Shown here one piece after another: positions 26,069 through 63,162 of a stretch of 64,000 nt of DNA. The position numbers and the translations under genes were made by a program. Source of the DNA: a virus; the IMG/VR virus record IMGVR_UViG_3300027969_003844, positions 32,001 to 96,000 of that record; one strand, given 5' to 3'. The notes beneath the pieces are model-generated. The model saw nothing but the letters and a program-made list of their open reading frames with translations. It searched no databases and was not told the DNA's origin. The stretch's first letter is position 1. Each line of letters starts with the position of its first letter.

Positions 26069-28141
26069 TTAAACTCTTTTCCATTTGCTTATTGAAATGT
26101 CTGCTCCGCAATGGCATCGTAGGCTATTGCAAATAACAGGATTAGATAATGTATTCCAATTAAGCTGGTCAAAATCCTTGACTGTTCCAATTACACCACC
26201 CACATCACAATTGCCTCGTTTGATATGACCATTTTGATGAATGAACAGACTCTCTACACCAATGTTACAATTAAAATCGTAAAAGTTTGTTTGTCCTCTG
26301 TTAATTAATTCTTGTTCATTGTCAATGATTGCACGACTGCCATCACTGAATGTAGCAGTTGGGCTCCATGGTGGGAATGGACGATATATTGGATTAGTAA
26401 CAGAAATATTGTCAGGCGATGACCGTGTTTCGACTTGCTTAAAATTCTTGAAGAATTGATTTTGTTCTTCAGAATAATTAATTTTGGCCAACTTGGTTCT
26501 AGAACTACCGTATTGATCGTCGATATAAACTAGTTCAATTCTAGCAGTTGTAGTTTTCTTTGCTTGGTCGATAAACTCTAATGTTTCTTCCCAGTACAGT
26601 GGATCCATCATTATACGCAATGACACCATGGTTTGCATTGTGGCAATACGTATGCGATCTAAATAATCTTTGGCTGTGCCATTGGCAAATTCTTGTGCAG
26701 GATGAAAACTACATGCCGCATAGGTCAGATACTTAAAATTTTCTTTAATGAATCGAGGTGTTCTTGCCAGGTTAGTGGTAATGCCAACATTGCCACCCAA
26801 GCTATGTATCTTTTGAACCATTTGAGGGAAGAACGGGCTCATTGTTGGTTCCCCACCACTGAGTGAAAAATTAATGTACTTTCCATCCCAGTGCTCAAAC
26901 ATCTTATCCAAGAAAGGTTCAATTTGTTCCCAATTAAACAAATGATTCTTTCCATTATGCAAAGACGATGGACAATATCTACAAGAATAATTACAGATAT
27001 CGTTAAGAATCCAAGTTACTATCACACGCTGTTCATTTTTAACTCCAACAATTTTTTTCCCTTGTACTGGGATTGGAAACTTCCATTGTGGGATTCTTGC
27101 TCTGGGATTTTCAATGCTTGAGTACATTTGAATATCGTCAACAATTTCAACATCCTGAATACTTCTAAATTTATTTAAATTAATGGTAATGCCAGTCACT
27201 GGAGAATAGATTTTTTCAAGCTGAACATCAACCAATCGTCCAATGCCCATAAAACCATCTCTATTATCTGGGTTGCGCCACTGGTAATCTAAATGCTTGT
27301 CCTCATCAAGTTCTTTGAACTTTTTCCAGTCATTGGTCAATGTGTACGGATCATAGGAGTCGTGGATTAGATAGCATAGTATTTCATTAGACCAAGATTC
27401 TTGACGAGTAATAGAATTGTTATCAACTGCCACTCCATCCCCGTCGGCCACAACCCGGCTTAGATTTTTACCTTCTCCGTTGTAGCCCAGTACAAGATCA
27501 CCAAATCTTAAATGCGACATAAAACTGGCGGCATCTTCGTTGGTGATTTCAAAATCACGGCGTGGATTAAAACTAATTAATAAATTTGCTTCAGTTGACG
27601 ATGTTGTTTCAATTGTGGGCTTCTCATCCGACGCAGATGCTGCCAATGTTTCTGCAATGGTAATGGCATCATTTAGTTGATTAAATGTTGTGTGGAAGTC
27701 TTCGTTGAATGTAATACCTGGCCATTGTAATGCTTCTGGACTATCTGCAGGGATTCGTTGATACGCAGTATCCCACCATTTTTTAGATAACTTTTCTGCT
27801 ACTCTTCCTTGATACTCATCAAATTGTTTATACAAATAATCAATAGCAGCCTGGTCGTATTTTTTAAAAATTGTCAATGGCTTGTCATAGAAAAGATTAA
27901 TCTTACGAATGATGTTGGTCAGACGCTCTTCAAATGCCATGTCTTTGGTTAAAAGAGTACGAGTAAATTTAATACGTTTATCCCTGAAACTTTTTTCTCC
28001 AAATTTCATATCTTCCAGTAACTGGCACCATTTAGCAGACAGCTTGGTATTATACAATCTGTAATACAGATCATAACATTCCCAGTTTTCTGGATTTACC
28101 AATGTAATCCTAACATTTTTATTGTCAATAAACTTTCCCAT
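26069..28141 (-). CDS. radical SAM enzyme with C-terminal SPASM/twitch, fused to an unknown N-terminal domain
   Basis: CNYSCRYC, SGGEPT, TTN; C..G...GNC...CNSLRCHC; ATG 28141 after GAGG. Confidence 0.88.
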   Translation of the reverse strand: MGKFIDNKNVRITLVNPENWECYDLYYRLYNTKLSAKWCQLLEDMKFGEKSFRDKRIKFTRTLLTKDMAFEERLTNIIRKINLFYDKPLTIFKKYDQAAIDYLYKQFDEYQGRVAEKLSKKWWDTAYQRIPADSPEALQWPGITFNEDFHTTFNQLNDAITIAETLAASASDEKPTIETTSSTEANLLISFNPRRDFEITNEDAASFMSHLRFGDLVLGYNGEGKNLSRVVADGDGVAVDNNSITRQESWSNEILCYLIHDSYDPYTLTNDWKKFKELDEDKHLDYQWRNPDNRDGFMGIGRLVDVQLEKIYSPVTGITINLNKFRSIQDVEIVDDIQMYSSIENPRARIPQWKFPIPVQGKKIVGVKNEQRVIVTWILNDICNYSCRYCPSSLHNGKNHLFNWEQIEPFLDKMFEHWDGKYINFSLSGGEPTMSPFFPQMVQKIHSLGGNVGITTNLARTPRFIKENFKYLTYAACSFHPAQEFANGTAKDYLDRIRIATMQTMVSLRIMMDPLYWEETLEFIDQAKKTTTARIELVYIDDQYGSSRTKLAKINYSEEQNQFFKNFKQVETRSSPDNISVTNPIYRPFPPWSPTATFSDGSRAIIDNEQELINRGQTNFYDFNCNIGVESLFIHQNGHIKRGNCDVGGVIGTVKDFDQLNWNTLSNPVICNSLRCHCGADISISKWKRV

Positions 28142-28157
28142 TTTAGCCTCTAAAATT

Positions 28158-29390
28158 TTATATATCAAGTAATTTTGTGTAGTCTGTGCCATGCAGGCGA
28201 TCAAGACCCTGTAGGTAATCCAGTGTTTGTGGGTACAAGTGACTCCAGTCTTCCGAATTCATAAATGTAATTAATCCAGCAAGTCTTTGCATTTGTACGT
28301 TCTTGGGATAACTTGCAAAATATGTTTCTAGTTTTTCCGTTACACGTTTTTTCATTTCTATTGGCAATACCTTGACACAAAGATATTGTGGCCAATGCAA
28401 TGTACCTGGATAGAATATGCCACCAATATTACTTTTACGAACCTTGTCAAGATTTAGGTTTAATAACCATTCGGACATTTCTGGCAACCAATTTATATTC
28501 AATGCTTGAACAGTGCATAACACTTTGACAATGATATTGTCTGGAGTGTCATTGTATAATTTTAAATTACGTTCAACCACTTCCCACTTGGCCGGACGAC
28601 GAATGTAATCATTGACCCAATCGTAACCATCAATACTGAGCATTAGTTCTACTTGCTTAAAGCTTTTCCAAAGCTCAACAATTTCTGGATTGTGTATAGT
28701 ACAATTGGTATGGTAACGAAGTGTGATATTTTTAGCTAAATCACGTGCAACCAACTGTTCGATGATTGACTTGTGTTCTTTGATGTACAGTGGTTCGCCA
28801 CCACCAAAAATAATGTGTTGTATAGAGCTTGCATTTTCAAAGAAATCATCCCAAAATACTGGATCTTTATACCACTCAAACTGTTCGGCGGCATAGTTTT
28901 CAATTTTATATTTCCACTCATGTCTTGCGTCAGTTTCTAATGTTTCACTGAGTGTTTTTGCGTCCTTGACCCATTTGCTCGAGTCCTGTGGCCGACACAT
29001 TACACATTGTAGATTACATGTATTACCAAGTCGTAAATCTAGTGTAATCAAATCATGATCAACACGACCATTGCGGCGTGTACTATCAACTAGACCATCT
29101 AGGTACTCTGCATCCAAGTGCTTGTACCAGTATTGATTTTCGTTTTGCCTGTGACTTTTGATACCAGCAGATTCTTCTTTGTAACAAGTGGTACATGCAG
29201 GGAACTCACGTCCATTTAGCATTGCCAGTCTGGCTTCTGCAAAATGACTACTGTTCCAAATCTGTGACCAATTTGATTTATTTAGATTTAAGTTTGAGGC
29301 CTTGGCCACACAACATAACAATGCTGTACCATCATTATAAGTTGCCGCATGTATCCAAGGTAGAATACAAAAAGTTTTAGATTTATCCAT
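28158..29390 (-). CDS. radical SAM enzyme, N-terminal twitch/SPASM-like (CxxPW type)
   Basis: FCILPW..LCC..CTTC; LDLRLGNTCNLQCVMC; GGGEPL. Confidence 0.92.
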   Translation of the reverse strand: MDKSKTFCILPWIHAATYNDGTALLCCVAKASNLNLNKSNWSQIWNSSHFAEARLAMLNGREFPACTTCYKEESAGIKSHRQNENQYWYKHLDAEYLDGLVDSTRRNGRVDHDLITLDLRLGNTCNLQCVMCRPQDSSKWVKDAKTLSETLETDARHEWKYKIENYAAEQFEWYKDPVFWDDFFENASSIQHIIFGGGEPLYIKEHKSIIEQLVARDLAKNITLRYHTNCTIHNPEIVELWKSFKQVELMLSIDGYDWVNDYIRRPAKWEVVERNLKLYNDTPDNIIVKVLCTVQALNINWLPEMSEWLLNLNLDKVRKSNIGGIFYPGTLHWPQYLCVKVLPIEMKKRVTEKLETYFASYPKNVQMQRLAGLITFMNSEDWSHLYPQTLDYLQGLDRLHGTDYTKLLDI

Positions 29391-30681
29391 TGATCAATTC
29401 TGCTATTCTGCTATCAAGTACTGTGACATCTTGTTCCCTGCTTTTGTCCAGGCTTTTTGTATATGTGCGTAAACGTTGCAATTGTTCTTCCCAGTCATCG
29501 GCTCTTGGTTGTTGTAATAGACCAATTATACCATTAACACTATTACGGGTTAATTCATGTACATTCTTAGGCATCTGATTGTCTCGATAATCCATTAGTA
29601 ATTGACACGCTTTGGCTTTAAGATCGTCAGGTAATATGTTTACATTGAGATGATAAGGATGATAATTTATAAGCAGGTCAACAAAAATATCTTTATTGTG
29701 TTTTTTGTTGAGCTCGTCTACCCATAACAACGTTTCAACTAGATTAAAAACATTATAAACCTGCACCGTTGGAGTCACACCTAATTTGACATTTGATAGC
29801 TCTGCAATCTTCTCTACGTTTGCACTCAACTGACTCCACTTACTTGGCGCACGAATGTAATCATTTACAGCACCAATTCCGTCTAAGCTGGCATTAATAT
29901 TAATTTCATCAAATTGACTGATAATATCAAGAAACTTTTTATTAACGTTGGTACAGTTTGTATTAAAAAATAATAAAATATCTTTGCGACCTTGGTCAAT
30001 ACAAGATTGCATAAATTTAAAATTGTTGCCAATAAGTGTTGGCTCGCCTCCGGTCATATAGACTTTCTTTAATTCTGGAATTAATGCGATAATCTGGTCC
30101 CATAACACATCGCTTTCAAACCATTCCTGTTGATCCATGACTGATATAGGAAACTTTCCAAATGCTTTACGCCAAACTTGTCCGTATGCTGGGTCTGTTT
30201 CTGTAAGCTCTAAGTGTTCCTTGGCAATCTGACTAGAATTCCATGGGTTGCACATTCTACATTTGAGATTGCACAAGTTGCCTAATCGCAAATCCAAATA
30301 CACCAAATCAGAATTAACTACGCCACCGTGTATTTTTGCATAACGAACACGTTTGGCCAATTCTTCTTCGCCTAATCTCCAGGCCCATTCATTGTTTGCA
30401 TGTATTCTATTACTGTCTCGACCCGAATCTTCTTGAAGATAACAGACTTTACAACCTTCAATGTTATCACCATTGATCATTGCAGTACGAATATCACGCA
30501 TGTCTTGTCCGTTCCATGCATGTTCAATAAACTGATCCTGGATAGTAAAGAATTTACCATCCTCTTTTTTAAGTTTGTTGGCCGCGCCTTTCACCATGCA
30601 ACAATACCGTACAGTTGCATCTGTATTGACCATTAGGCTAACAAAAGGAATAGCGCAAAACGTTTTTGAAATTGGTTTCAT
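29383..30681 (-). CDS. radical SAM enzyme, N-terminal twitch/SPASM-like (CxxPF type)
   Basis: FCAIPF..YCC..CKVC; CNLKCRMC; TGGEPT. Confidence 0.92.
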   Translation of the reverse strand: MKPISKTFCAIPFVSLMVNTDATVRYCCMVKGAANKLKKEDGKFFTIQDQFIEHAWNGQDMRDIRTAMINGDNIEGCKVCYLQEDSGRDSNRIHANNEWAWRLGEEELAKRVRYAKIHGGVVNSDLVYLDLRLGNLCNLKCRMCNPWNSSQIAKEHLELTETDPAYGQVWRKAFGKFPISVMDQQEWFESDVLWDQIIALIPELKKVYMTGGEPTLIGNNFKFMQSCIDQGRKDILLFFNTNCTNVNKKFLDIISQFDEININASLDGIGAVNDYIRAPSKWSQLSANVEKIAELSNVKLGVTPTVQVYNVFNLVETLLWVDELNKKHNKDIFVDLLINYHPYHLNVNILPDDLKAKACQLLMDYRDNQMPKNVHELTRNSVNGIIGLLQQPRADDWEEQLQRLRTYTKSLDKSREQDVTVLDSRIAELING

Positions 30682-30753
30682 TAAACTAAGCTTTAAAGAT
30701 TTGTCTTTTACTTATCGACAAACTTTATTACGAGTTAGCCAGTAAGATGACAA

Positions 30754-32247
30754 TTATGATGTGCGCGAATCTTCAACAGCAATTTGGTCTTGCCATGTAT
30801 AATCAAGATTCTTGGTTACAATTACATTATTATCAAAATCAACAAGTTCAAGCTTGCAAACATCGTCGTACTCAAACAATTCACGCATGAAATTTTCAGG
30901 ATCCGGATCAGACCAATCATCGCGTACAATACGTGCCACTGGAATTTTTCCAATGCTGGTAAACTTACTGTCTGGATCAACGTTTCTTTCGCGTAACCAT
31001 GGGAACATTTTTCTGTTTAAATTGTCAATAAGTTGTGTTTGTAATGCATAACTGTGTTCATGCAAAAACGTAATATTGCATTCGCCACTTAGGTAGCGTA
31101 ACCCACTGATGTTCTCATCATGAATTTCTCCGTCTTTGTCATAATACGCTTCCAATGGAGTTTTGCCAAGTTGGCAATAGTGCAAGAGTACATCGCCAAA
31201 GAATTCATATTGTGTAAAATTATCAAAATCGCTTTCAACAAATTTATAACGCTTGACTGGCATAGCAGGCAAAAATACATGGGCATTCCAATACCCTTGT
31301 CCCAATGAGTTTTGTCTATTGCCTTCTATTTCATGACACAAGTTATTGAGCTGTCGAATTGCAAACATAATAGGTAATGGCGAATTGGTAAAGTATCTTG
31401 AAGGATTCCATACCTGCCCAATTAGTAATTCAAAATGATGATGGATCTCATTGAGAATTTGTTGATCTAGAGTGATAGAATCAAACACCTGTGTAATATT
31501 ATAATATGGACGAGTATCTTCATTGCTGCCATCAAAATACTCATTGATTTTACCAATGTACTTGTTTAACTCGTTACACAGGCCTGGAATGTTTCTGGCA
31601 ATTGAACTATCATCTCTATACGTCCAGTTCTGTAGCATAAAGTACTTTTCAAACTTGGCTTCGTCAACGCTTAGATAATCATTGTGACAACACCTGGCCC
31701 ACTTTTGTGCAATAAAAGAAGTATTAATTTTAAATCGTACTTTCTTTGTTGCGCCGGTATCAACTGCTCTAAAGGTCAACTGAAATTCATTGTATTTTGT
31801 ATTTTCGTATGCACTGCCAATGGCTTCGACAATTGCACCATCTGTGGTAATTTCCGTACTAAACAATCTAGTGCGTCGTACACGGTCAACATGTTCATAA
31901 TCTACCAACCAAAGAAAATTGTTGACATGACATTGAGATTCTAAATCATCAAAGAATTCTTGACTGTCGGCTATAAAGAAAGATTGATATATGCTGTTGC
32001 AGTATTTCCAAAATTCATCAAAGACCTGCCGTTCGTTGAAGTAATGAATTAAATTATCAACTTTGCCATCGGGATTTGCCAATGCTTCTTTAATAAAGTT
32101 AATTTCACTTTCAGCATCACATAGAAAAATTAAACGAGTGTTTGAATCTCGTTGTAGTGTTGCAAATGCTAATAGTCCAGGCAGAGACACACCATAAACA
32201 TAATAGTTCTCAACATAGGTTTCGGGATTTGTAAATTGTGTTTGCAT
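30754..32247 (-). CDS. hypothetical protein carrying the cluster's repeated unknown domain at its C-terminus
   Basis: QKW, QILNEIHHHF, LNNLCHEIE, FGDVLLHYCQLGK. Confidence 0.75.
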   Translation of the reverse strand: MQTQFTNPETYVENYYVYGVSLPGLLAFATLQRDSNTRLIFLCDAESEINFIKEALANPDGKVDNLIHYFNERQVFDEFWKYCNSIYQSFFIADSQEFFDDLESQCHVNNFLWLVDYEHVDRVRRTRLFSTEITTDGAIVEAIGSAYENTKYNEFQLTFRAVDTGATKKVRFKINTSFIAQKWARCCHNDYLSVDEAKFEKYFMLQNWTYRDDSSIARNIPGLCNELNKYIGKINEYFDGSNEDTRPYYNITQVFDSITLDQQILNEIHHHFELLIGQVWNPSRYFTNSPLPIMFAIRQLNNLCHEIEGNRQNSLGQGYWNAHVFLPAMPVKRYKFVESDFDNFTQYEFFGDVLLHYCQLGKTPLEAYYDKDGEIHDENISGLRYLSGECNITFLHEHSYALQTQLIDNLNRKMFPWLRERNVDPDSKFTSIGKIPVARIVRDDWSDPDPENFMRELFEYDDVCKLELVDFDNNVIVTKNLDYTWQDQIAVEDSRTS

Positions 32248-32248
32248 G

Positions 32249-32350
32249 TTAGTAAATGAAAGGATCCTGTTTTTTCAACTCTTTCAGACGCCTTTTGTAT
32301 CTGCGCTCGGCCTTGATTCTTTCAATGATGTTTTTAATAAAATTCCACAT
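32249..32350 (-). CDS. 33-aa basic peptide ending DPFIY
   Basis: MWNFIKNIIERIKAERRYKRRLKELKKQDPFIY; AGGA RBS and CTAAATA motif upstream. Confidence 0.65.
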   Translation of the reverse strand: MWNFIKNIIERIKAERRYKRRLKELKKQDPFIY

Positions 32351-32360
32351 TGTATATTTC

Positions 32361-33251
32361 CTATAATGAATATTTAGAAACAAAATAATTAAATGCATTG
32401 TCGGCTGCAATATCGTGTATATATTCCATGACATGGCCACCTGCACAGGCTACTGGTAATTTCTTATCTTGTTTTCCTGCAATATCTTCAAGGTCTATTA
32501 GATAATTAATATCCAATTCTTTAAAAAGCTGTTGAATTGACCAATTTATTGTTGATGGTGATTCCCTTGTTCCTGCTAGTTCAACTAGCCAGTCTGGTGC
32601 CGTTTCAGCAACCGATTTTGCAAAATACAAGTCAATTCCCTTGGCTTGGCAAAATGTTTTTAATAGTAGATTAGACATCAACCACTTGTGTAATCTTGCA
32701 TCTTCGTGTTCGTACATTATTGTGGTTTTGCGTATGGCATCAATTTGACTACTGTTGTATGATATTTCGTTGCTTAACAAAATAGAACTCCAATAATTGT
32801 GTGATTCTTCAAAGTATTGAATCCTATTAACACTGGTCGTTCCAACCAAGAAAATTATTTTTTTACCCTGTGTACGTCCATGTTTTGTTTCGTGCAGGTA
32901 TTGGTCAATGATTTCTCTAGTAATCCATTCTTGACTTGCACCACCACTTGCATGATTATGTACAGTACAGTTTACACCAGGACGGCTAGACAATCTCATT
33001 CCAATTTTAGCAGGATATGCCCTACTATAATTTTCAATGATTTGTTGTTGCTGTTGATCTGCTGTAAGTTTGATAGTATTTTTACGATTAACCCATGCCT
33101 TGACCAATGCAGGTCTATTAATTTTATGAGTGGTGCCTCGCCACTCGCTGAAAGTTATGTCATCATGATCAATTTTGGGGTAAAATAAATCATCAGACAA
33201 TTCTTCACCAGCAGTAAAACTATCACCACATGCAAAAATTACCATTTCCAT
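32361..33251 (-). CDS. SGNH/GDSL-like hydrolase or acyltransferase
   Basis: CGDSFTAG, NHASGGAS, C-terminal GGH. Confidence 0.7.
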   Translation of the reverse strand: MEMVIFACGDSFTAGEELSDDLFYPKIDHDDITFSEWRGTTHKINRPALVKAWVNRKNTIKLTADQQQQQIIENYSRAYPAKIGMRLSSRPGVNCTVHNHASGGASQEWITREIIDQYLHETKHGRTQGKKIIFLVGTTSVNRIQYFEESHNYWSSILLSNEISYNSSQIDAIRKTTIMYEHEDARLHKWLMSNLLLKTFCQAKGIDLYFAKSVAETAPDWLVELAGTRESPSTINWSIQQLFKELDINYLIDLEDIAGKQDKKLPVACAGGHVMEYIHDIAADNAFNYFVSKYSL

Positions 33252-33253
33252 AA

Positions 33254-33991
33254 TTACATTATTGCCTTTAAACTATCTAACACAATTTGATTAAAAGGAT
33301 CACGGGCGCCACCATGGCTAATCATGTGAATTCTAGGAGTATTGCTATTGTTCCATACACTGTGCAAGTTTCCAATATCTACCAAGCAGGCATTGCCTTC
33401 ATTCTTAAAAGGAACATAACCCTTGCCTTCCATTTTGAAATTACAGCCTTCTGGATTGTTCAATGCAACATTGATTGGTAGTAGAAAATGTTCGTTACGA
33501 TCCTTGTGCGGTTGAATATACCCTTGTGGGTCTAACCACATATAACGTAGTCTATGATATCTATGGTTAGGAAATATGTCACGAAAGTATCGTGTGGTTT
33601 CGGGACAACGTTCTGTTATCTCGCCACACCAATGGTAATTGATATCGTTGATTGTTTTACCCTTGTTGTCATCGTATGCTTCCCAGTGACCAGTTCTGTC
33701 CCAAGCTTCACCGTGTAAGCAAATACTTTTCCAACCGCGATTGGCATATTCGGGGTTTTCATCTGGATGTGTTCTGTGCATTTGAAATAGGTCTTGCATG
33801 GCAAATGCTTCGCGAAGCATGTCTGCGAAGGGAGCACCAGGAAGAATTAGTGGCAAGTAAGGCCAGCCACTTTTCATTATGATCCAATCAACTAGTTCAT
33901 GTTCATGCTCAAACTTTGGCAATTGAACAGTTTTAAAATCCATGGTCCATGGACTATCATTGAAAAATTCTACAATTGCTTTTGGTATCAT
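33254..33991 (-). CDS. 2OG-Fe(II) dioxygenase, Asp/Asn beta-hydroxylase (LpxO-like)
   Basis: RLRYMWLDPQGYIQPHKD...HSVWNNSNTPRIH (HxD...H...R). Confidence 0.85.
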   Translation of the reverse strand: MIPKAIVEFFNDSPWTMDFKTVQLPKFEHEHELVDWIIMKSGWPYLPLILPGAPFADMLREAFAMQDLFQMHRTHPDENPEYANRGWKSICLHGEAWDRTGHWEAYDDNKGKTINDINYHWCGEITERCPETTRYFRDIFPNHRYHRLRYMWLDPQGYIQPHKDRNEHFLLPINVALNNPEGCNFKMEGKGYVPFKNEGNACLVDIGNLHSVWNNSNTPRIHMISHGGARDPFNQIVLDSLKAIM

Positions 33992-35373
33992 TTTATTACA
34001 TTCCCTATATGTGTCCAACCTGGCGTCCCAGTGCTGGTTGTTCCACAAATTTGCAGGCTGGTGTTGTTTAATTTAAGTTCATTTATAAATGTATCGTACA
34101 CTGACTTTAACCATGCTGGTTTAAAGTGGCGAAGGCTTGCTTCTGTATAGAAACTGTTACTAAACCAAATTAAGTTATTACCTTGATGTTGATTCATGTC
34201 TGCAATTAATTCACTGCGCTCATAATACAGGTTAGTCTTCAGGAATCTATGCTCAAGGGCGCGGTATCGGTTCCATAAATCTAACCAAGCGGCTTCGCCA
34301 CCAAATACATCCATTGTTTTTTCCCATTGGTCAGTGTATTCTTTTTTCCCAAACCAAATTGGACTAAACGTTGGATCAACATGAGCAATATAATGTTGAA
34401 TAATATCCAAATAATTACGGCCGTCCCAATTCTTTAGTAACCATTCTTTAAATGCCAGTGCAGAATCACTGTAATCAAAATATATAACTCGTGTGGTTGA
34501 GTCCCACTTGCATTGATCTAAGAACTGAATTGGCTTGAAGCCTGCAGCCACACAATACAAATTGTCTAGCTTGGTCGATTTGTCATATGCAATATAATCG
34601 CGATTCATTGAATCAGTATTAAACACATAAACTGAGCCCTGAAAACCAGAAAAGTCTGTTATTCTTACGTAGTCGCGCTGATTAGGTTCAACTGGTTCTA
34701 TTGTAGAATTGCCATCTAAAATCTTTTCAAGATCAGTTCCTACTTCTGGATAGAAGTGCATTTTAAATTTTCTAAGCTCTTCGGAAAAATTACCAATGCT
34801 AAATCCATGTGATAGTAATGTACTAGCAAGATTCCAACCTTCTCTTACAGGGCCAGTGTATTGTCTTGTTTCAGTTGTAGGTAAAATATAAAATGGAGTA
34901 TATCCATCGTGAAAGTCTTCTGTACTACGATTTACCAATGGTAGTGTTACATTATCAACGTTTGTATGATTACCCCATGATGGGCTTCCAACATGCCTCC
35001 AATGGTTTAAATTGATCAATGCACATTGATTATGCAAGGAGTAAAATCCTTGCTCTTTATTCTCTGGATTATCTTCCAGTATGTGTGCTAGAACACTATA
35101 ATTATTATCTTCAGCATACTTAATCATGGCATCTACTAAAAATACATCATAGCTACGATAACCATATGCTACAATATAAAGATAGTCTCCATCTAGTGAT
35201 CTGGCCGCATCAATGATTGAATCTATTGTGTTGCCAACAATCAATTCATCGATTGGTATATTACGCATTGTCAATTGCATAGATACAGCAAAGTCGGTGA
35301 TAGCTCTGACATGGTCTTGATAACCCTGTGATCTATCATTGATCTGGTTTAAAAGTGCAAATTTAATTTTCAT
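33988..35373 (-). CDS. hypothetical protein, possible C-terminal SAM-binding Rossmann domain
   Basis: YCVAAGFKP...VIYFDYSDSAL; assignment tentative. Confidence 0.6.
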   Translation of the reverse strand: MKIKFALLNQINDRSQGYQDHVRAITDFAVSMQLTMRNIPIDELIVGNTIDSIIDAARSLDGDYLYIVAYGYRSYDVFLVDAMIKYAEDNNYSVLAHILEDNPENKEQGFYSLHNQCALINLNHWRHVGSPSWGNHTNVDNVTLPLVNRSTEDFHDGYTPFYILPTTETRQYTGPVREGWNLASTLLSHGFSIGNFSEELRKFKMHFYPEVGTDLEKILDGNSTIEPVEPNQRDYVRITDFSGFQGSVYVFNTDSMNRDYIAYDKSTKLDNLYCVAAGFKPIQFLDQCKWDSTTRVIYFDYSDSALAFKEWLLKNWDGRNYLDIIQHYIAHVDPTFSPIWFGKKEYTDQWEKTMDVFGGEAAWLDLWNRYRALEHRFLKTNLYYERSELIADMNQHQGNNLIWFSNSFYTEASLRHFKPAWLKSVYDTFINELKLNNTSLQICGTTSTGTPGWTHIGNVIK

Positions 35374-35376
35374 TGT

Positions 35377-36318
35377 TTACTCTATTAGTCTAACGGCAGA
35401 AACTTTGCCTAGCTCGAGAATTTCGTTTACTTCGGTGTACGTTACTTTATCTCTATTTACTAGCTGTCCCAGTAATGGTCTTGCCACTGCTTGATTTTCT
35501 GGCAATGACATATTTACGTACTCGTCTAGTTCATTATCATGTACCCATTTCTTTACTTCTTCTAAGTGCATTTTTGAAGCACCTGGGTATGGTTCTCTAT
35601 TTCTTTCTGAGAAACTCAGTACTACTTCATTGCTAATAGTACGTTGTGGTCTAATCATATTTTTCTTGACTAATTCAACATCGTTATCAACAAAGCAATG
35701 GTAAATGTTCTTTCCAACTGTATGATAGCCTAACAATAAGTCACCAAATGATACGTCATGTAAAAAGTATTCGTACAGCGACGGATCAGTGATTTCTTCT
35801 ACATGAGTTCCAGTAACAATACCCGCGGATGGACTTGCATGTAAAAAGAAACCTGCACTTATGTCACCACCGTAGTTGTCAATCATTGCTTCAAGGATGT
35901 GAATGTCAACATTTAATCTAATTAAAGGATCATAACCTACAATTAGTCCATCAAGTTCTTCTTCAAACCGATGAAATTCATAGTGTAAATAATTCAATAT
36001 CTGTCGATTGTCTCTGGTCTCATCAAACTCTTCTGGCATGTCAATGAAATCAACTTGAATGTATTCTCCAGAATTTGCTTCGTCTACTAACTTTTTCATG
36101 CCCTTCCAAATAGCTTTGATTTTTTCCTTGGTCGGCGCACTTGCTATCCACTGATTTTCAAAAATATGGCAATCAGGTTGAGCCATTACCCAACGTACAC
36201 GCTCTAGCCATTTTTCAGCAATGGGTGTGTCTGCAATTTGAAATCGTAATGTTTTTGTTACTTCACCGTCGGTAAAGTCGATTTCATAAAATTTATCTAA
36301 GAAGTTATATGTTGTCAT
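35377..36318 (-). CDS. stand-alone copy of the cluster's repeated unknown domain
   Basis: EKW, QILNYLHYEF, LNVDIHILE, FGDLLLGYHTVGK. Confidence 0.75.
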   Translation of the reverse strand: MTTYNFLDKFYEIDFTDGEVTKTLRFQIADTPIAEKWLERVRWVMAQPDCHIFENQWIASAPTKEKIKAIWKGMKKLVDEANSGEYIQVDFIDMPEEFDETRDNRQILNYLHYEFHRFEEELDGLIVGYDPLIRLNVDIHILEAMIDNYGGDISAGFFLHASPSAGIVTGTHVEEITDPSLYEYFLHDVSFGDLLLGYHTVGKNIYHCFVDNDVELVKKNMIRPQRTISNEVVLSFSERNREPYPGASKMHLEEVKKWVHDNELDEYVNMSLPENQAVARPLLGQLVNRDKVTYTEVNEILELGKVSAVRLIE

Positions 36319-37561
36319 TTAAGTATCCAAAAATAGCAATCTTGCTCATGTCCTTGTTTCTACGTTTTGCAAACTGCTCAAAGAAAGACAGGTAATCTTT
36401 TGCCAGCGGGACTTGATTAGGTGCTTCGCGAACGTCAAGTAATGTCAACAGTCTTTTGTAACGATCTGTTTCGTGACTGTTTAATTGAGGTAATATATCT
36501 AAAAACACTGTTTCATATTTGTTGTGGTAATAGTCAAGCAATTTTTGATCTAAAATCTTGAAGCTTTGGAACTCAGGGTAAGTTAAAAAGTTAAAGTCAA
36601 CTGACACAGGTGTACGCATGGTTTGTCGCAAATTGATTATATCTTCTAAGAAGTTATCAAAGTTTTGTAAACACATTGCACTGATTGTGGTCATTACAAA
36701 TATATGGTCAAGCCCGGCGTCGTCTAAGAATTTAATATTGTCAAGCCACTCTCGATAGTTCATTCCATCTCGCAGTATTTCTGCAACATGGTCAGCACTT
36801 TCGTTACTGGTGTATATAGAAACCTGTTTAATACCTTTGATTTTTTCTTTGAATCTTTCTAATACCAATGGCTTCTGACAGAGATTAGAATTAATTGCAA
36901 TTTTAACATTGGGATTCTTAGTACGAACCTTGTCTAACAAATCAAATGTTTGTTCGTGTAATAACGGCTCTCCACCAGTGATACGAATAATATCAATGTC
37001 GTCAACTACAGTATCAAACCAGGCCCAGAACAAGTCAAAGTCAACTGGAGTATCTTGGTATTGCTCTATTGGTCGTTGGTAATGTTTACGAGCATCTGTT
37101 GTAATGTTTTGATATACTCCGTTGTTTTTGATATCATTTGCCCATTGTGAACTAAAGTCTGCATTACAGTAAGAACAACCTAAATTGCAAGTCTTCTGAA
37201 ACGCTAGCTCTAGTACCTTAGGTTTAAAGTTAAAATTAGGATCTAAATACTCAGCTGGAGTTAGATGATCAGGATAGCTAACTGATTTGAATTCTCTGTC
37301 GCTAGTTAATCCTTGTGCTTCCAGCTTCCAGCAATAGCTACAAGGGTCTGGCTTTTCACCAGCAAGCATTGATTTTTGCTGAGTACGCTTCTCGTATGTA
37401 TTATAAAAAGTCTCAACAGTTGATCCAGTGCTGTGAAAAGGATTATGATGGCAACTGGCAATTTTACCACTATACAACCAAATTGTTGCTTCGTGAAACT
37501 TTGCCATGCAAAAGGTATTGCTGGTATTGGCCCATAAGTTTTCTAGTTGTATTTTTTGCAT
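36305..37561 (-). CDS. radical SAM enzyme (CxAK/SCHH N-terminal type)
   Basis: FCMAKF..SCHH..CSYCW; CNLGCSYC; TGGEPL. Confidence 0.92.
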   Translation of the reverse strand: MQKIQLENLWANTSNTFCMAKFHEATIWLYSGKIASCHHNPFHSTGSTVETFYNTYEKRTQQKSMLAGEKPDPCSYCWKLEAQGLTSDREFKSVSYPDHLTPAEYLDPNFNFKPKVLELAFQKTCNLGCSYCNADFSSQWANDIKNNGVYQNITTDARKHYQRPIEQYQDTPVDFDLFWAWFDTVVDDIDIIRITGGEPLLHEQTFDLLDKVRTKNPNVKIAINSNLCQKPLVLERFKEKIKGIKQVSIYTSNESADHVAEILRDGMNYREWLDNIKFLDDAGLDHIFVMTTISAMCLQNFDNFLEDIINLRQTMRTPVSVDFNFLTYPEFQSFKILDQKLLDYYHNKYETVFLDILPQLNSHETDRYKRLLTLLDVREAPNQVPLAKDYLSFFEQFAKRRNKDMSKIAIFGYLNDNI

Positions 37562-38907
37562 TATTGGCCTGTAATGAATGGTTTCATGTCTATATATTCA
37601 GGAAAGACCTCAAAGAAATCTTCTTTTCTATTTTTGTCAAGCCACAACTCGCGATTCCATCCACCTCGTATCCAATCGTCTGTTCTAGCAGGGACTTTTA
37701 ATAGATCTATTGCACTTCGATACCCACTTGCGGCACCGTCAAGAGATCTATTCCATTGTATATCAGACTCAGCATCTGACGTGACACGTTTAAAAGTTTC
37801 TAACCAGGCAATTTGCTCGTTGTACAGTGCAGTCAGATTGGCCTTGTGATTGTCGGGTAAGTTAGAAATACACCAGTGTTCTGGACCAAATAATAAGTTA
37901 ATAATAATATCACCAGGTTGAATATAACTAAGATTGACCCATTCCTTATGGAACTCTGCAATGTTATATGCTGTCATCATGCTTAAAGTTGCACCAATGA
38001 CAAATTTAACATGTGGCACTTCGGCTATCATTCGTTTTCTATTTTCAATGACCTGTTGCCATGACAAATTTTTACGTGCATATTCGCCTCGACCATAGCT
38101 GCCATCTAGGCTAGCAGAAACTGTTACTCTGCTAAACTTTTTCCAGTATTCAATTACATCAAACTTGGCATGAGTTAACTTGCTGAAATTTGTATTATAA
38201 AAAATATCAATATCTGTGTTTCCTAGGTCCAAGAAGTAATCTAAGATCTCATAATGCTGTGGCATGATTAGAGGCTCGCCGCCTGCAAAATAAATTCGAT
38301 GACAACTTCTCAAATTCTGTTTTAAACTTTCAACAGGCACGCCGGCCTTTCTAAATCTAGTTAAATTGTCATTGACTATAATTCCAGCATCAAGCATTGC
38401 TTGTTCTTCAGGAAACCAAGTCGAGCTATATTCTGGACCACAAGATCTGCATCTTAAATTGCAGGTGTTATCAAATCTTACATCTAGATAATTTATCTCA
38501 GGTTCGGCAACTGTATAATCTTCATTGACAGAGTTGCGAATATTATCATCAACTTTCCAAGTATTCATCCATCCCATCATTGCTTGACGCATACTATGAG
38601 TATTAACTGCTTCGCCTTTCCAGCAGTAGTTACATTGCGAATTTTTTACACCGTTCAATAAGTCTTTGCGTAGTTCTTTAAAAGACTCGCTGTTGTATGC
38701 ATTGACAATGCTTTCGTTTGTTGTACCTTCAATCCTGGACAATGATCTTCTAGTGGCTGATTTATGCACACAACATGCCGCTAAACTACCATCTGTGTGA
38801 ATGTAGTAAGAGTTAAATGGTGCTGGACAAAATGCACCATTGTTCTTGATCTTGTCCCATTCTGCATCTGTAAATTTTAATTTTTTAGTCATTGTCGTTG
38901 GTCTCAT
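37561..38907 (-). CDS. radical SAM enzyme (CxxPF type)
   Basis: FCPAPF..ACC..CNYCW; CNLRCRSC; AGGEPL. Confidence 0.92.
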   Translation of the reverse strand: MRPTTMTKKLKFTDAEWDKIKNNGAFCPAPFNSYYIHTDGSLAACCVHKSATRRSLSRIEGTTNESIVNAYNSESFKELRKDLLNGVKNSQCNYCWKGEAVNTHSMRQAMMGWMNTWKVDDNIRNSVNEDYTVAEPEINYLDVRFDNTCNLRCRSCGPEYSSTWFPEEQAMLDAGIIVNDNLTRFRKAGVPVESLKQNLRSCHRIYFAGGEPLIMPQHYEILDYFLDLGNTDIDIFYNTNFSKLTHAKFDVIEYWKKFSRVTVSASLDGSYGRGEYARKNLSWQQVIENRKRMIAEVPHVKFVIGATLSMMTAYNIAEFHKEWVNLSYIQPGDIIINLLFGPEHWCISNLPDNHKANLTALYNEQIAWLETFKRVTSDAESDIQWNRSLDGAASGYRSAIDLLKVPARTDDWIRGGWNRELWLDKNRKEDFFEVFPEYIDMKPFITGQ

Positions 38908-40114
38908 AACGTGGCAACAGTCCTCTGATATAGTCTAATATCTCTGGTGCAACAAAGTGTCTAGTTTTTTGTTCTCGTGACAAGTCAACCAAATAAAATT
39001 TATTATAAATTGTTATTAGTTCGTTGTTGCTTGGCAAACGGCTGTTCATATGATTAATCAGTCCCTTGATCACTTCCTTGTCAAGAGCACTTTTATTCCA
39101 CTTGTCTTCAATGAGGTCTTTGGCACCGTCGGGCAATGCCCATAGAGCCATGTGTGCCGGGCTATGAATCAAATTGTACCAAATTGCAAAGGTAGGAGTA
39201 TTGGTTTGTATCCATTCAACAAATTTAGGCAAGTCCCAGGCATTGATCCAACCAATGGTGTGACTAATAGAAATATTTGTGTTGTCTAACTCTCCATTGG
39301 CCTTCATTGCATTGTACTTGATTAGGTTTTCTTGTACTTCATCCCATTTACCAGGATAACGAAGATAATCATAGGTTCGACCAAGACCGTCAATGCTTAG
39401 GCCTAATCCAACTGATTTAAAATTGTCGTTTAGGAATTTAACACGCTCTCCAGAAAAGATTGTGGCATTTGAACTTAATGAAATATTAATTTCCTTACTA
39501 CGGCCACTGGCCACAAACTCATCCCATATATCATTCCATTGCTGAATATAAAATGGTTCGCCACCTACGATTTCTAAGTTTTGTACATGTTGCATCCACT
39601 CATGTCTATTTTTCCAAAGTAATCCATTCTTGTCACCGCTTTGACTAAATTTCATTTCGTAACCAGTGTTGCCGTAAATTTTCTTGTGTTCGGCTTGCCA
39701 TAGATTACTGTGACTTGGTGAACAACTACGACACTTTAGATTACAAGCATTGTTGATAATCATTTGATATTCATATGGCAGGCCCGGCTCAGCATCAAAG
39801 TCAACTATTGACTCATAGGTGTTATCTACATTTCTGGTATAAATCTGACGCTTGCTTTTGTGGCCATTGTTTTCGTCAATGATGCATGTTTCGCATGCCA
39901 GTGGCTTTTTGCCATCACGGAAATCCTGGCGTAACTTCTTCATGTAGTTACTGGAAAATATTTCCGTTACTGTATTAGTTTGAACATGCATGAACTCGCC
40001 ATTGTCATCCTTAATGTAGTCTTTGTAAAGACAGCAGGGACGAACTTTACCGTCAGGATCGTTACTAAATCCCGTCCAGGGCAGGCTACAAAGCCATTTT
40101 TTAGATTGAGTCAT
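38885..40114 (-). CDS. radical SAM enzyme (CxxPW type)
   Basis: LCSLPW..PCC..CETC; CNLKCRSC; VGGEPF. Confidence 0.92.
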   Translation of the reverse strand: MTQSKKWLCSLPWTGFSNDPDGKVRPCCLYKDYIKDDNGEFMHVQTNTVTEIFSSNYMKKLRQDFRDGKKPLACETCIIDENNGHKSKRQIYTRNVDNTYESIVDFDAEPGLPYEYQMIINNACNLKCRSCSPSHSNLWQAEHKKIYGNTGYEMKFSQSGDKNGLLWKNRHEWMQHVQNLEIVGGEPFYIQQWNDIWDEFVASGRSKEINISLSSNATIFSGERVKFLNDNFKSVGLGLSIDGLGRTYDYLRYPGKWDEVQENLIKYNAMKANGELDNTNISISHTIGWINAWDLPKFVEWIQTNTPTFAIWYNLIHSPAHMALWALPDGAKDLIEDKWNKSALDKEVIKGLINHMNSRLPSNNELITIYNKFYLVDLSREQKTRHFVAPEILDYIRGLLPRYETNDND

Positions 40115-41456
40115 ACCAGTTTATAAACCTTTGATCCAGTGATTCACGGAAATTCTTATTTCGTCTTTTGTCATATTGTGCCACGTATGATTTTAAATCT
40201 TGCAGGGCATCTTCTTCTCTTACATGCTGTTCCCATTTAACATTTGTTTCTGACATGTTAATAATTAGCCGTTCAACGTGGGCAATTTCTGTGTCGTGAC
40301 ATAAGCTTTTGTTTTCATTTAGCCATGCAGTAAATTCATTGACCAATTGCATTCTCAACTCAAGTGGAATAAGTTGAACACGCATAAATGCTGGTGAATG
40401 AACAAAGTTACAATTAAGCTCAACTCTTAACTGACCGTATTTAATCTTAAGGTCTTTGATCATATTTAGATAATCAATCATTGACCATACGCCAAGATTA
40501 TTAATGCTTGTGGTAAAGTTTAATCTATTAATAACATAGCTTGGACTTTCAAGAACTGTGATTACATTCTTCATCCATACATCGCCGTCAAACCCATCTC
40601 GAATGTATTCAGTTTGTAGCAATGAACTTTCAATACTAGTATGCAACACTGTTCTAAAATTGCTACCTACTGCATCAAGCAAACGCTGTAGCACATCTTC
40701 TTTGCAAACAAGATTGGTGTTAATAGAAAGGTCCTTGTTGAATTCGCCTTCTTTTAATCTATCCAGGAATCGCCAAAAGTTTGGACTCATTGTCGGCTCT
40801 CCGCCAGTGACTCGCAGCCACTTTAAGTCTTTTTCTAGCGTTGGCAACCAGTTGAAAAATGCTTCTACGTATGGATTTTCTCCCTGATCAATCATGTCGT
40901 CATCATTTGATGTTATGTAACGTCGATCAGTGATTAGTCCTTCATATGGTCCGTGATTCTTGATATCATTGGCCCATTTGGTGCTAAAAGCTGGACCACA
41001 GTATGCACATGCCAAATTGCAAATTCTATCAAACGCAATCTCTAGCATATAAGGATTGGTTGTCAATGGTTGGCCGCCAGTGGCCCATTGATGCAATTGC
41101 TTGCCTGGTACCGCCTGTGTTTTAATATAGCGATCACTAAGGCCGCCATCAGCTTCAATACTCCAGCAATAATTACAGCCACTGGGCTTTTCGCCGTCGA
41201 GCATGGCCTGACGTTCTCTCATTTTTTGCGGAGTGTTTTGTAGACTCGACGGATCGTTAGGATCTAATTCAATTTTATGAAATGGATTGTGATGGCAACT
41301 GGCTGTTGCACCTTGATACAACCAAATTGTACCTTCAAACCATTTAGCCCCACAAAAACTAGGGCTAATCTTGTCCATATGCTCTTCTTTAAAGATTTTA
41401 AATCGAGCAGTTTCTCCTGTTTGATGATTTGATAAGTCTGCCATATTAAAGTTCAA
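40101..41456 (-). CDS. radical SAM enzyme (CxAKW/SCHH type)
   Basis: FCGAKW..SCHH..CNYCW; CNLACAYC; TGGEPT. Confidence 0.92.
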   Translation of the reverse strand: MNFNMADLSNHQTGETARFKIFKEEHMDKISPSFCGAKWFEGTIWLYQGATASCHHNPFHKIELDPNDPSSLQNTPQKMRERQAMLDGEKPSGCNYCWSIEADGGLSDRYIKTQAVPGKQLHQWATGGQPLTTNPYMLEIAFDRICNLACAYCGPAFSTKWANDIKNHGPYEGLITDRRYITSNDDDMIDQGENPYVEAFFNWLPTLEKDLKWLRVTGGEPTMSPNFWRFLDRLKEGEFNKDLSINTNLVCKEDVLQRLLDAVGSNFRTVLHTSIESSLLQTEYIRDGFDGDVWMKNVITVLESPSYVINRLNFTTSINNLGVWSMIDYLNMIKDLKIKYGQLRVELNCNFVHSPAFMRVQLIPLELRMQLVNEFTAWLNENKSLCHDTEIAHVERLIINMSETNVKWEQHVREEDALQDLKSYVAQYDKRRNKNFRESLDQRFINWYDSI

Positions 41457-42840
41457 TCCCGTTGTACCAATCTGCTAGTCCCGGAAATGCCTCAGTGAAA
41501 TTCTTACCACGACGTTGATCATATTGCTGATAGAAACTCTTGAAATCCTTTTCAAGTTTTTCTCTTTCATATGCACCAGTGTGTGGAGTTTTAACAACAT
41601 CGAGATAATCAATAACTCGTTGTGTTTGATTAATTTCCATTTGATGTAATTTTATATCATCTCTATCTTTGTTGTTGTCAAGCCATAGTTGTAACCTGTC
41701 CTTGCGTACCTGACGCATTTCATCTGGTAACACTGTTAAACTTTGAAAACTAGGGAATCGTAAAAAGTTTAAAGTAAACACGCCAAAGTCTCTTCCGTAT
41801 TGTTTTTTAAATTCTACAACCCAATCTAAAAATTCAGGAAGACTTTCTAAGCAAAGTAAATTAATTGTACACATGATATGCAATGCTCTGAAACGTCCAC
41901 TGCTGGCAAGCTTATGCATATTCATTTTCCACTGCTCGTAATCAAGTCCATCCCGGATGTACTCAGCTTGTAAGCCAATGGATTCATTGCTGGTATAGAT
42001 TTGCAAATCATCAATGTACTGAGCTCGGTCAATTAGTCTATCAATTAATTCGTCTTTGCCGCCAAGGTTGCTATTAACTGCCAACCGCATATTGGGATTA
42101 CGAGTATTTTTAGGATCTGCAAACCAGTCCAATAAACGCCAGGTATGCGGACTCATCAATGGCTCGCCACCAGTGATACGAAGTTCGTACAGTGTACGAT
42201 GTAAATCACTTTCCCACCATTTAAAGAATGCTTCAATGTAAGGATTGCTTGGGTCATGGTCATATACACCAGCTGACTCATGCAAGTGATCAAAGTGTCC
42301 TCGACCATCTGTGTATAATTTTGTGTAAGGACCAAACTTCTTTAAATCATTTACCCAAGTTGTACTAAATGCTGGATTGCAATAAGAACATGCAAATTGA
42401 CATGTACGATCAAAAGCAATTTCTAATGTACGCAAGTCAACATCATTGTTATAGTCACCCTCCCATGCTTCTTTTAAAAGTTCTTCAGTGTAGATTTCAC
42501 TTTTATAAACTCGATCACTGATGTTGTCACGACCAATGTCTTCAACTTTCCAGCAGTACTCACATCCTGACGGACGCTCGCCATCTTGCATTTGTTTTCT
42601 CTCATTTTTCTTATGAGCTGTATTATGAATAGCCTTAGGATTGAATTTGATCTCTTTAAGATCTGCTTGGTGAGGCAATGGGTGATGACAGCTAGTGGTT
42701 TGGCCGCTGCCTAGCCAGATAGTAGAATTATACCACTTGGCCAGACATAAACTTTTACTATGACTATCTAGTAATTTTTTAACTCCATGGTCTGACGCTT
42801 GAATTTCTCTAATTGATAATGGTTGATTTTGTGTTGTCAT
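41446..42840 (-). CDS. radical SAM enzyme (CxAKW/SCHH type)
   Basis: LCLAKW..SCHH..CEYCW; CQFACSYC; TGGEPL. Confidence 0.92.
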   Translation of the reverse strand: MTTQNQPLSIREIQASDHGVKKLLDSHSKSLCLAKWYNSTIWLGSGQTTSCHHPLPHQADLKEIKFNPKAIHNTAHKKNERKQMQDGERPSGCEYCWKVEDIGRDNISDRVYKSEIYTEELLKEAWEGDYNNDVDLRTLEIAFDRTCQFACSYCNPAFSTTWVNDLKKFGPYTKLYTDGRGHFDHLHESAGVYDHDPSNPYIEAFFKWWESDLHRTLYELRITGGEPLMSPHTWRLLDWFADPKNTRNPNMRLAVNSNLGGKDELIDRLIDRAQYIDDLQIYTSNESIGLQAEYIRDGLDYEQWKMNMHKLASSGRFRALHIMCTINLLCLESLPEFLDWVVEFKKQYGRDFGVFTLNFLRFPSFQSLTVLPDEMRQVRKDRLQLWLDNNKDRDDIKLHQMEINQTQRVIDYLDVVKTPHTGAYEREKLEKDFKSFYQQYDQRRGKNFTEAFPGLADWYNGIEL

Positions 42841-44432: not shown

Positions 44433-44490
44433 TCGCGTTGGTTACCGTGCTAAAATTATAAAGGTACTTATCGAGTTAAATTTGAAAAGT

Positions 44491-45756
44491 TTACTCAGAT
44501 AAGTTTCTATTATACTCGAGTATGGTTTCCATGTCGCGTACTAATTTTGGAAGATTTTCCCTCCACGAAGTTTTTCTAACAGTGTCTTTTTTATCAAGTT
44601 GCCTCATCTGCATTTCAAGTTGAGGAACTATCACCCATTTATTATGATTAGGATGATTTTTAAGTGGGGCTAAAAATTCCTTAAAGGCTCTTCTTCTCTC
44701 TGCAATAGTAAAATGGTCAAAGAAGGGATTGGTAAAATTTTCACTTAAATCTTCTACTTCACGTATTGCTTCCTCTCGCATTGCAGGGGTTAGCACATCA
44801 GTTGAAAGACCTATTGGATAAATCATTGGACCAAAATTAATACGACATCCATTGTTACTGGTCATTCCATCTATCCAGTTTGAAATCTTTCCTATCATTC
44901 TGTAGTTTCCTAGTCCAACTGTTACTGTAAATTGCAATTGAATATGAGGACCTTTACGTTTTAATAATGTTTGTACATTTGATGCAAATTCCTTTGCATC
45001 AAGTCCGTAACGAAGTTGTTCTCCCCATTTGTCAAATCCATCAACACTGACTGACAGCACAATTGGACCGTTTATCTTATTCCACATATCTATTAGATCG
45101 TAGTGTTTATAAGTCAAATGACTGAAGTTGGTATTGTAAAATAATTCAATGCGTTGTTGGCTATCAATGAACATTTGTAAAAGTTCATAATGATGTTCTG
45201 CTATGGTTGGTTCACCACCTGCAAAGTAAATTTTTTCAATATCTCTATGAAACTCTTTTATTTCATTTAAAACTTTATCACCATCAACATTAATAATTGG
45301 GCTGTCAAGTTTTGTAACTTTAATGCGTTTATCTTCTACTGCATGAGCAGAGCTGTACTTTTCACCACAACCAATACAAGCAAAATTGCATTTGTTAGTA
45401 AATCTGTAGTCTAAATATAATTGTTTAAATTCTGCATGTCCAGATGGCTCAGGTTCTAGCAAAGATATAAATTTTTTCCAACGATTATTTTGATTTTGTC
45501 GCAGTGAGGTTCTGCCAGATGTTTCGAACCTGGTACATGCCGCGCACTCTTTTGGCAAGGAATCAGCAGTAAGCATCTGCTGTCTAATTTCATTGTATTT
45601 TGGACTATGAAAGATCTCCTTTAAGGTATTGTCTTTCAAATTACCCATTGGGGTAGGCGCAGTAAGGCAACAAAGATTTACACTGCTATCTGGATCAATT
45701 TCTGTGTGCATCCATGGTAGAACGCAAAATGCTTTTGGTAGATTATTATAATCCAT
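44491..45756 (-). CDS. radical SAM enzyme (CxxPW type)
   Basis: FCVLPW..LCC..CAAC; CNFACIGC; AGGEPT; ATG 45756 after AAGGA. Confidence 0.92.
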   Translation of the reverse strand: MDYNNLPKAFCVLPWMHTEIDPDSSVNLCCLTAPTPMGNLKDNTLKEIFHSPKYNEIRQQMLTADSLPKECAACTRFETSGRTSLRQNQNNRWKKFISLLEPEPSGHAEFKQLYLDYRFTNKCNFACIGCGEKYSSAHAVEDKRIKVTKLDSPIINVDGDKVLNEIKEFHRDIEKIYFAGGEPTIAEHHYELLQMFIDSQQRIELFYNTNFSHLTYKHYDLIDMWNKINGPIVLSVSVDGFDKWGEQLRYGLDAKEFASNVQTLLKRKGPHIQLQFTVTVGLGNYRMIGKISNWIDGMTSNNGCRINFGPMIYPIGLSTDVLTPAMREEAIREVEDLSENFTNPFFDHFTIAERRRAFKEFLAPLKNHPNHNKWVIVPQLEMQMRQLDKKDTVRKTSWRENLPKLVRDMETILEYNRNLSE

Positions 45757-45764
45757 GTTTATTC

Positions 45765-63133: not shown

Positions 63134-63162
63134 TACTGTACTTAATGAAAAAGTTTGGGGTA

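Follow-up and report, generated by a model that had tools for sequence, protein, structure and literature searches.

A domain of a large unnamed phage protein family that travels with N-twitch radical SAM arrays, and the loss of its conserved polar site in one fused copy

Introduction

In big aquatic phages, arrays of N-twitch radical S-adenosylmethionine (SAM) genes count among the most extensive gene blocks that lack an explanation. Published work notes 11-12 radical SAM genes, without assigned function, in some T4-like environmental phages and in Campylobacter phages (PMC5332604, PMC2853527). In this study, we describe a protein domain of about 310 residues that accompanies such arrays, starting from a 64,000-nt stretch of viral DNA (the window), which belongs to a 105,199-bp IMG/VR viral record, IMGVR_UViG_3300027969_003844. 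CheckV gives this record a completeness of 32%, which implies a jumbo phage of about 330 kb. The domain is found as a stand-alone protein (P0001, 35377-36318), as the C-terminal part of P0002 (30754-32247) and as the N-terminal half of P0003 (26069-28141), in which it is fused to a radical SAM half.

The closest described systems resemble this domain only in part. Its constant genomic partner is the NCBIfam family NF033640 (N_Twi_rSAM), to which it is even joined in one open frame in a Bdellovibrionales locus; NF033640 is nonetheless a different protein family, and the domain has no iron-sulfur (Fe-S) motif. Helical His/carboxylate metal sites include the ExxH pairs of ferritin-like diiron proteins and the His triads of DinB-type proteins. 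The candidate ligands of the domain recall both, being spaced i, i+3/4, i+7 on two adjacent antiparallel helices, but their order is HxxxE/H followed by HxxE instead of ExxH pairs, and they are carried by a three-helix unit packed on a barrel and not by a four-helix bundle. Neither profile searches nor fold comparisons matched the domain to ferritin-like or DinB-type families.

Results

Three copies of one domain

The three stretches are homologous. In BLASTP, P0001 aligned with P0002 over 249 columns (E 9e-9) and with P0003 across the FGD..GK block (E 5e-9), and P0002 aligned with P0003 at E 6e-4. A hidden Markov model (HMM) built from P0001 orthologs alone in order to avoid circularity (profile A1) recovered P0002 at 7.7e-13 and P0003 at 3.2e-11, and no further match appeared among the 160 open reading frames (ORFs) of the window, even at E<=10. 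All three copies were also matched by a second HMM, A4, made from distant stand-alone members, and the combined profile spans nearly the whole domain in each of them. The complete 105-kb record holds exactly these three copies. An earlier note on this DNA, made from its letters, had proposed an unrecognised domain present three times on the basis of four shared, ordered motif blocks. These blocks are all found at the places claimed in the three translations, and the significant mutual BLASTP matches together with the non-circular HMM matches establish the homology.

P0001, which has 54 orthologs, none of them with a name, carries the full signature N109, H112, H116, N136, H140, E143, H199, K203, D213 and E231 (residue positions are given throughout in P0001 numbering). 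The core signature (N109/H112/N136/H140/E143/K203) is complete, at six out of six, in both P0001 and P0002, the latter with E116. P0003 keeps N136, E143 and K203 of this core, and is thus a member by fold and profile and not by signature.

The family is large, almost wholly viral and phage-centred. When 1.84 billion cluster representatives (50% identity) were searched with a profile of the family, 1,375 matched at E<=1e-3, 366 of them at E<=1e-30. More than 513 IMG/VR contigs encode the domain; among prokaryotes, with one genome taken for each of 185,579 species, it was found on ten contigs, all belonging to metagenome-assembled genomes (MAGs). The three copies have no Pfam, PHROG or NCBIfam model, and 73 family members gave no consistent match to these collections. 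The family profile found nothing significant among PDB sequences (best E 0.33), tblastn with P0001 and P0131 matched none of 50,697 deposited phage records, and the ESM Atlas returned no usable match to the domain. No member carries a name in any source, and the literature that we found holds only general remarks about radical SAM-rich phages.

Predicted structure

The AlphaFold2 model of P0001, computed from a 73-sequence alignment, has a predicted local distance difference test score (pLDDT) of 92.6 and a predicted template modelling (TM) score (pTM) of 0.89. Foldseek found no match for it in the PDB (best E 0.03, TM about 0.15 or less), and in BFVD it matched uncharacterized phage proteins only. 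An exhaustive VIA search returned two themes, both in the Z range that this tool describes as a common arrangement: a generic helical-bundle match over residues 62-150 (Z up to 8.6) and a beta-barrel match spanning residues 5-313. The latter involves more than 25 cyclophilins (Z 6.8-7.9, 130-147 residues, root mean square deviation 3.3-4.0), next to which stands the C-terminal barrel of the Pictet-Spenglerases KslB/McbB (9k0a, 9nss, 3x27; Z 6.6-7.3).

Cyclophilin-like barrels (e.g. 1xo7, 2ose) and KslB/McbB thus give the best whole-model alignments (Z 6.6-7.9 over 122-147 residues), but with 6-15% identity, no sequence-family match and scores below the trust level of the tool. Moreover, the domain's insert of about 90 residues, a three-helix unit with a His/Asn/Glu ladder, has no counterpart in cyclophilins or KslB/McbB. 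The predicted fold can therefore be loosely described as a cyclophilin-like barrel with a three-helix insert, by which we mean a resemblance and claim no homology. This agrees with the earlier note, which called the domain unrecognised: neither Pfam, NCBIfam nor PHROG has a model for it, the PDB search gave no relative by sequence, and no known fold clearly corresponds to it. The family is new as a sequence family and, within the reach of these searches, also in its fold.

A near-invariant polar site

Conservation was counted over 364 aligned rows:

N109: 349/364
H112: 353/364
F115: 351/364
Position 116: Glu in 266 and His in 82 of 364
N136: 358/364
H140: 355/364
E143: 357/364
G202: 360/364
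K203: 360/364
D213: 314/364
E231: 314/364

N109, H112, E/H116, N136, H140, E143 and K203 are hence conserved at about 95% or higher. Six of these form a ladder, N109-x2-H112-x3-[E/H]116 and N136-x3-H140-x2-E143, on two neighbouring helices of the insert. In the AlphaFold2 model, these helices cover residues 105-122 (N109, H112 and 116) and 131-147 (N136, H140 and E143) and are joined by an eight-residue loop. With spacings of i, i+3, i+7 and i, i+4, i+7, each set would fall on one helical face, and an antiparallel hairpin register would be predicted to pair 116 with 136, 112 with 140 and 109 with 143. The barrel part carries a G-K loop (K203), D213 and E231.

The near-invariance of His, Asn and Glu in about 360 members is as would be expected of an active or metal site, and we consider the ladder a plausible candidate for a catalytic, possibly metal-binding, site. 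Two His residues, His116 and His199 (GYHT), are confined to the P0001 subfamily and are not family-wide. They covary perfectly (42 H/H pairs, 0 mixed), which links the helix motif to the GK loop and hints at a single site.

Loss of the site in the fused copy

In the P0003 domain, the fold-level blocks are retained and the signature is degenerate, with the changes N109D, H112Y, E116D, H140T and T200G. The earlier note had reported that both His residues are replaced in the fused copy; the replacement is real and reaches more sites than it had claimed. At position 116, the fused orthologs have Glu, P0001 has His and P0003 has Asp. At position 199, P0003 and all fused orthologs have Asn, P0001 having His.

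The same note held that loss of the His residues tracks fusion to a radical SAM enzyme, and this is contradicted by the other fused proteins. The form fused to a small radical SAM half is rare: it is found in five clusters, which represent one lineage since they are 41-100% identical to P0003 in the domain region. Among these fused orthologs, P0340, P0341 and P0342 read LNYLH..Y and LNDAIH.AE, with the site intact. The fused ortholog of the syntenic closest relative, locus L001, whose island genes are 69-93% identical to those of the window, retains N109, H112, E116, N136, H140 and E143. All six are also present in an independent fusion to an N-twitch radical SAM enzyme (locus L107). As L001, P0340-P0342 and the independent L107 fusion keep the site, its loss is not tied to fusion; among fused orthologs, it is peculiar to the phage lineage of the window.

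Loss of the site is very rare in the family at large. The fetched loci contain 87 full-length copies that differ from one another; 81 of these have the six core residues, four have five of them and two are degenerate. The degenerate copies are the P0003 domain and an unfused 284-aa copy (L006:6853-7704; H112R, N136S, H140S, K203R). The latter directly precedes an intact 764-aa fusion of the domain to a region of the type of protein X (described below) and an intact stand-alone copy; each of the two genomes has two intact copies.

A comparison of P0003 with its orthologs in both halves shows that its domain is not undergoing general decay. Identity to the L001 ortholog is 58% in the domain and 67% in the radical SAM core. 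Of the ortholog-invariant columns, P0003 keeps 93 of 124 in the domain (75%), and its radical SAM half retains 140 of 159 (Fisher p = 0.005). The changes concentrate in the signature helix, where 8 of 12 invariant columns are altered, versus 23 of 112 elsewhere in the domain (Fisher p = 0.0016). This pattern suggests a lineage-specific pseudoenzyme domain whose fold would still be under selection. As in pseudoenzyme paralogs in general, the fold is kept, invariant residues are lost and intact paralogs occur in the same cluster. Here, "dead" describes a predicted state, as read from the sequence.

The radical SAM half of P0003 is recognised by its CxxxCxxC motif (CNYSCRYC) and by a PF04055 score of 37.5 bits, above the cut-off of 29.5. 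It is not of the N-twitch type (NF033640 at 19.4 bits against a cut-off of 170), and the region that precedes its core is the unnamed domain and not a twitch domain. Neither is this domain a PqqD-like recognition element of ribosomally synthesised and post-translationally modified peptides: it has no Pfam match to PF05402, and such elements are winged helices of about 90 aa, as opposed to about 310 aa of barrel and helices.

The radical SAM island of the window

All long ORFs of the window lie tightly packed on the minus strand. The three domain copies are enclosed in an island that runs from 24607 to 49131, listed here in the order of transcription:

47842-49131, minus strand: radical SAM gene of the same BLAST cluster as the array, first in transcription order
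36305-45786, minus strand: seven tandem N-twitch radical SAM paralogs, upstream of P0001
35377-36318, minus strand: P0001, the stand-alone domain, 313 aa in translation
33988-35373, minus strand: protein X, 461 aa, directly after P0001
33254-34048, minus strand: Asp/Asn beta-hydroxylase-type cupin, of the family that is fused to the domain in locus L108
32361-33251, minus strand: 296-aa protein with a weak, sub-threshold Chitin_synth_2 match, kept in the syntenic relative L001
30754-32247, minus strand: P0002, 497 aa, in which the domain covers residues ~151-490 (window 30778-31797)
28158-30681, minus strand: a pair of N-twitch radical SAM genes that separates P0002 from P0003 (NF033640, 369.6 and 359.7 bits)
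26069-28141, minus strand: P0003 gene, domain and radical SAM
27134-28129, minus strand: N-terminal domain copy of P0003, residues 26-357 counted from a TTG at 28204
27797-27853, minus strand: remodelled signature helix of P0003, residues 118-136
26069-27007, minus strand: radical SAM half of P0003, with CNYSCRYC and PF04055
24607-26067, minus strand: NodU/CmcH-type carbamoyltransferase, the second most frequent neighbour of the domain

Ten N-twitch-array radical SAM genes thus flank the three copies. Six of the array genes were tested against NF033640 and scored 258-370 bits, with a curated cut-off of 170, and the remaining ones fall in the same BLAST cluster as these six.

Gene neighbourhood and fusion partners

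Linkage to the N-twitch genes extends well beyond the window. ORFs were clustered across 104 domain-bearing loci, and in 63 of them an array-family N-twitch radical SAM gene lies within 3 kb (<=3 kb) of the domain on the same strand. The carbamoyltransferase is found at such a distance, on the same strand, in 37/104 loci and anywhere on the locus in 50/104. In a typical module, 4-8 radical SAM paralogs are followed by 1-5 tandem domain copies, the carbamoyltransferase, a small P-loop kinase and two unknown proteins. Often adjoining are a DegT-type sugar aminotransferase, an NAD-dependent 4,6-dehydratase/epimerase, thymidylate synthase and sometimes deoxycytidylate (dCMP) deaminase. These neighbours point to sugar or glycan tailoring.

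Several times over, the domain forms fusions with the kinds of enzyme found elsewhere in the island, namely radical SAM enzymes, proteins with GT-A- and methyltransferase-like folds and the cupin hydroxylase. Relatives of P0002 are mostly about 770 aa long, with an N-terminal extension of about 415 aa that is homologous to protein X (blastp 1e-7) and of which residues 1-150 of P0002 are the tail, a remnant. An X-type region precedes the domain in the same way in about 65 protein clusters of other phages. We also considered the extension of the ~770-aa forms as a diverged copy of the domain and rejected this, the sole hhalign match being an artefact of a cut that overlapped the start of the domain. 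Protein X has no Pfam, NCBIfam or PHROG match. Its model (pLDDT 81.8) shows a GT-A glycosyltransferase-like fold in residues 1-210, which aligns with about 35 GT-A enzymes, several of viral origin, at Z 9-10.9. Residues 240-460 form a class I methyltransferase-like fold (Z 8.5-10.8).

Two further fusions come from MAG contigs. The first (L107:1-4884; contig G004:C137 of a Bdellovibrionales MAG) is an open frame of 1,628 aa that the start of the contig truncates. An N-twitch radical SAM enzyme takes up residues 2-421 and the domain residues 1307-1613; the middle part of about 885 aa has no match among the sequences of this analysis. The second (L108:1-2460; G004:C467) is an 820-aa open frame that joins the domain to an Asp/Asn-hydroxylase-type cupin of the same cluster as the gene at 33254-34048 in the window. 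More generally, Bdellovibrio-like MAGs contain 3-7 domain copies and many NF033640 genes, co-located. Since every type of fusion partner also exists as a separate gene in the island of the window, guilt-by-association strongly places the domain in the same pathway. The functional tie to the radical SAM pathway, which the earlier note had drawn from the P0003 fusion, is thus borne out by these fusions and by the linkage in 63/104 loci.

A different MAG, labelled Candidatus Pacearchaeota (G003, 1.2 Mb; locus L022), has 19 N_Twi_rSAM matches, about a dozen of them above the cut-off, and also one copy of the domain. As its content resembles that of large phages, phage contigs may have been binned into it.

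Discussion

Taken together, these results lead us to favour, with confidence somewhat above even, a reading in which the domain defines a new phage family with a catalytic site, acts as a tailoring enzyme of the N-twitch radical SAM island and has become a pseudoenzyme in P0003. The three stretches are paralogs of one large unnamed phage-centred family. The conserved ladder, with K203, D213 and E231, would form the catalytic site, either a His/carboxylate metal site or an acid/base site. The domain would then be a core tailoring enzyme of an island built around the NF033640 enzymes and the NodU-type carbamoyltransferase, the most likely substrate of which is a sugar or glycan. In the lineage of the window only, the signature helix of P0003 has been remodelled and the fold kept. 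The P0003 domain would probably be a pseudoenzyme that persists as a binding module or as a structural aid to the radical SAM half; the loss would be tolerable because two intact paralogs are encoded elsewhere in the island.

Several points weigh against this reading. Catalysis and metal binding are deduced from sequence patterns for every member of the family, and the spatial proximity of the conserved residues only from the periodicity of the helices and the register of the hairpin. The covariation of H116 and H199 comes from a single clade. As the barrel has no structural homolog above Z 8, the fold gives no hint of function. P0003 keeps N136, E143, K203, D213 and E231, so that its activity could be altered instead of dead. 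Finally, the recurrence of thymidylate synthase and dCMP deaminase nearby means that a nucleotide or DNA target is possible.

A non-enzymatic role is an unlikely alternative: the domain would be a ligand-binding or adaptor module that hands a sugar, a nucleotide intermediate or a metal to radical SAM, glycosyltransferase and cupin partners. Its many different fusion partners, its tandem arrays of 1-5 copies beside radical SAM arrays and the persistence of the P0003 domain, conserved in fold despite the lost His residues, would all suit an adaptor. However, that subfamilies at 30% identity should share His, Glu, Lys, Asn and Asp residues almost without exception is more typical of catalysis than of binding, and the site is very rarely lost (2 of 87 copies). 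We regard as quite improbable a narrower form of our preferred reading, in which the domain is an O2-dependent non-heme iron oxidase or hydroxylase. The H-x3-[E/H] and H-x2-E motifs on paired helices do resemble helical iron sites, but no oxygenase family matches the domain in sequence or fold, the role would be redundant because the island already encodes a cupin hydroxylase, one that is even fused to the domain in L108, and the partner radical SAM enzymes are typically oxygen-sensitive.

It is very improbable that a radical-SAM-fused domain becomes, as a rule, a dead substrate-recognition module in which His loss goes with fusion. Such a rule would account for P0003, which lacks H112, H140 and an acidic/His residue like those of its relatives at 116 (there, Glu or His is replaced by Asp), but it is at odds with P0340, P0341, P0342 and L001, which keep N109, H112, E116, N136, H140 and E143, with the intact and independent N-twitch fusion of L107 and with the other degenerate copy, L006:6853-7704, which is unfused. 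Hardly credible, lastly, is a cyclophilin-type prolyl isomerase or chaperone that would fold the many radical SAM proteins. It is true that more than 25 cyclophilins align with the barrel (130-147 residues, Z 6.8-7.9), but these Z values lie in the common-arrangement range of the tool at 6-13% identity, neither P0001-P0003 nor any of the 73 members has a Pfam cyclophilin (PF00160) match, and the conserved residues sit in the helical insert, which cyclophilins lack.

The favoured reading, a catalytic tailoring domain with a pseudoenzyme copy in P0003, also has a bolder form, which we find conceivable although we lean against it. The domain would found a new family of metalloenzymes with a new fold, in which a barrel carries a helical His/Glu site. 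It would also be an obligate partner for the N-twitch radical SAM enzymes, a group never characterised, and the two would jointly perform sugar or nucleoside chemistry of an undescribed kind, in a glycan-tailoring island that many large aquatic phages and Bdellovibrio-like predators share.

A second unknown family of at least 1,375 sequence clusters, with an almost invariant polar site, thus travels with the N-twitch arrays. The novelty that we claim lies at the level of the protein family and fold. For experimenters, the domain offers a soluble 300-aa entry to the pathway that is free of an Fe-S cluster, and the fused proteins of the window's phage, in which the site is lost, and of L001, in which it is intact, form a natural pair for probing it.

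Further genes in and around the island

Two more unannotated families recur at the downstream end of the radical SAM/domain/carbamoyltransferase module. One (c10, about 380 aa) is present in the window at 58920-60179; the other (c3, 450-1,345 aa) is absent from the window and occurs in loci such as L068:9067-13101. A further radical SAM gene outside the main island, at 62240-63172, matches phrog_21308 and shares BLAST cluster c25 with classical radical SAM genes bearing a C-terminal SPASM domain; it brings the total for the window to 12. Between the 296-aa gene and P0002, a 33-codon ORF ending in ...DPFIY is found at 32249-32350. The 296-aa gene itself is present in one copy in the window and in two copies before the P0002 ortholog in L001.

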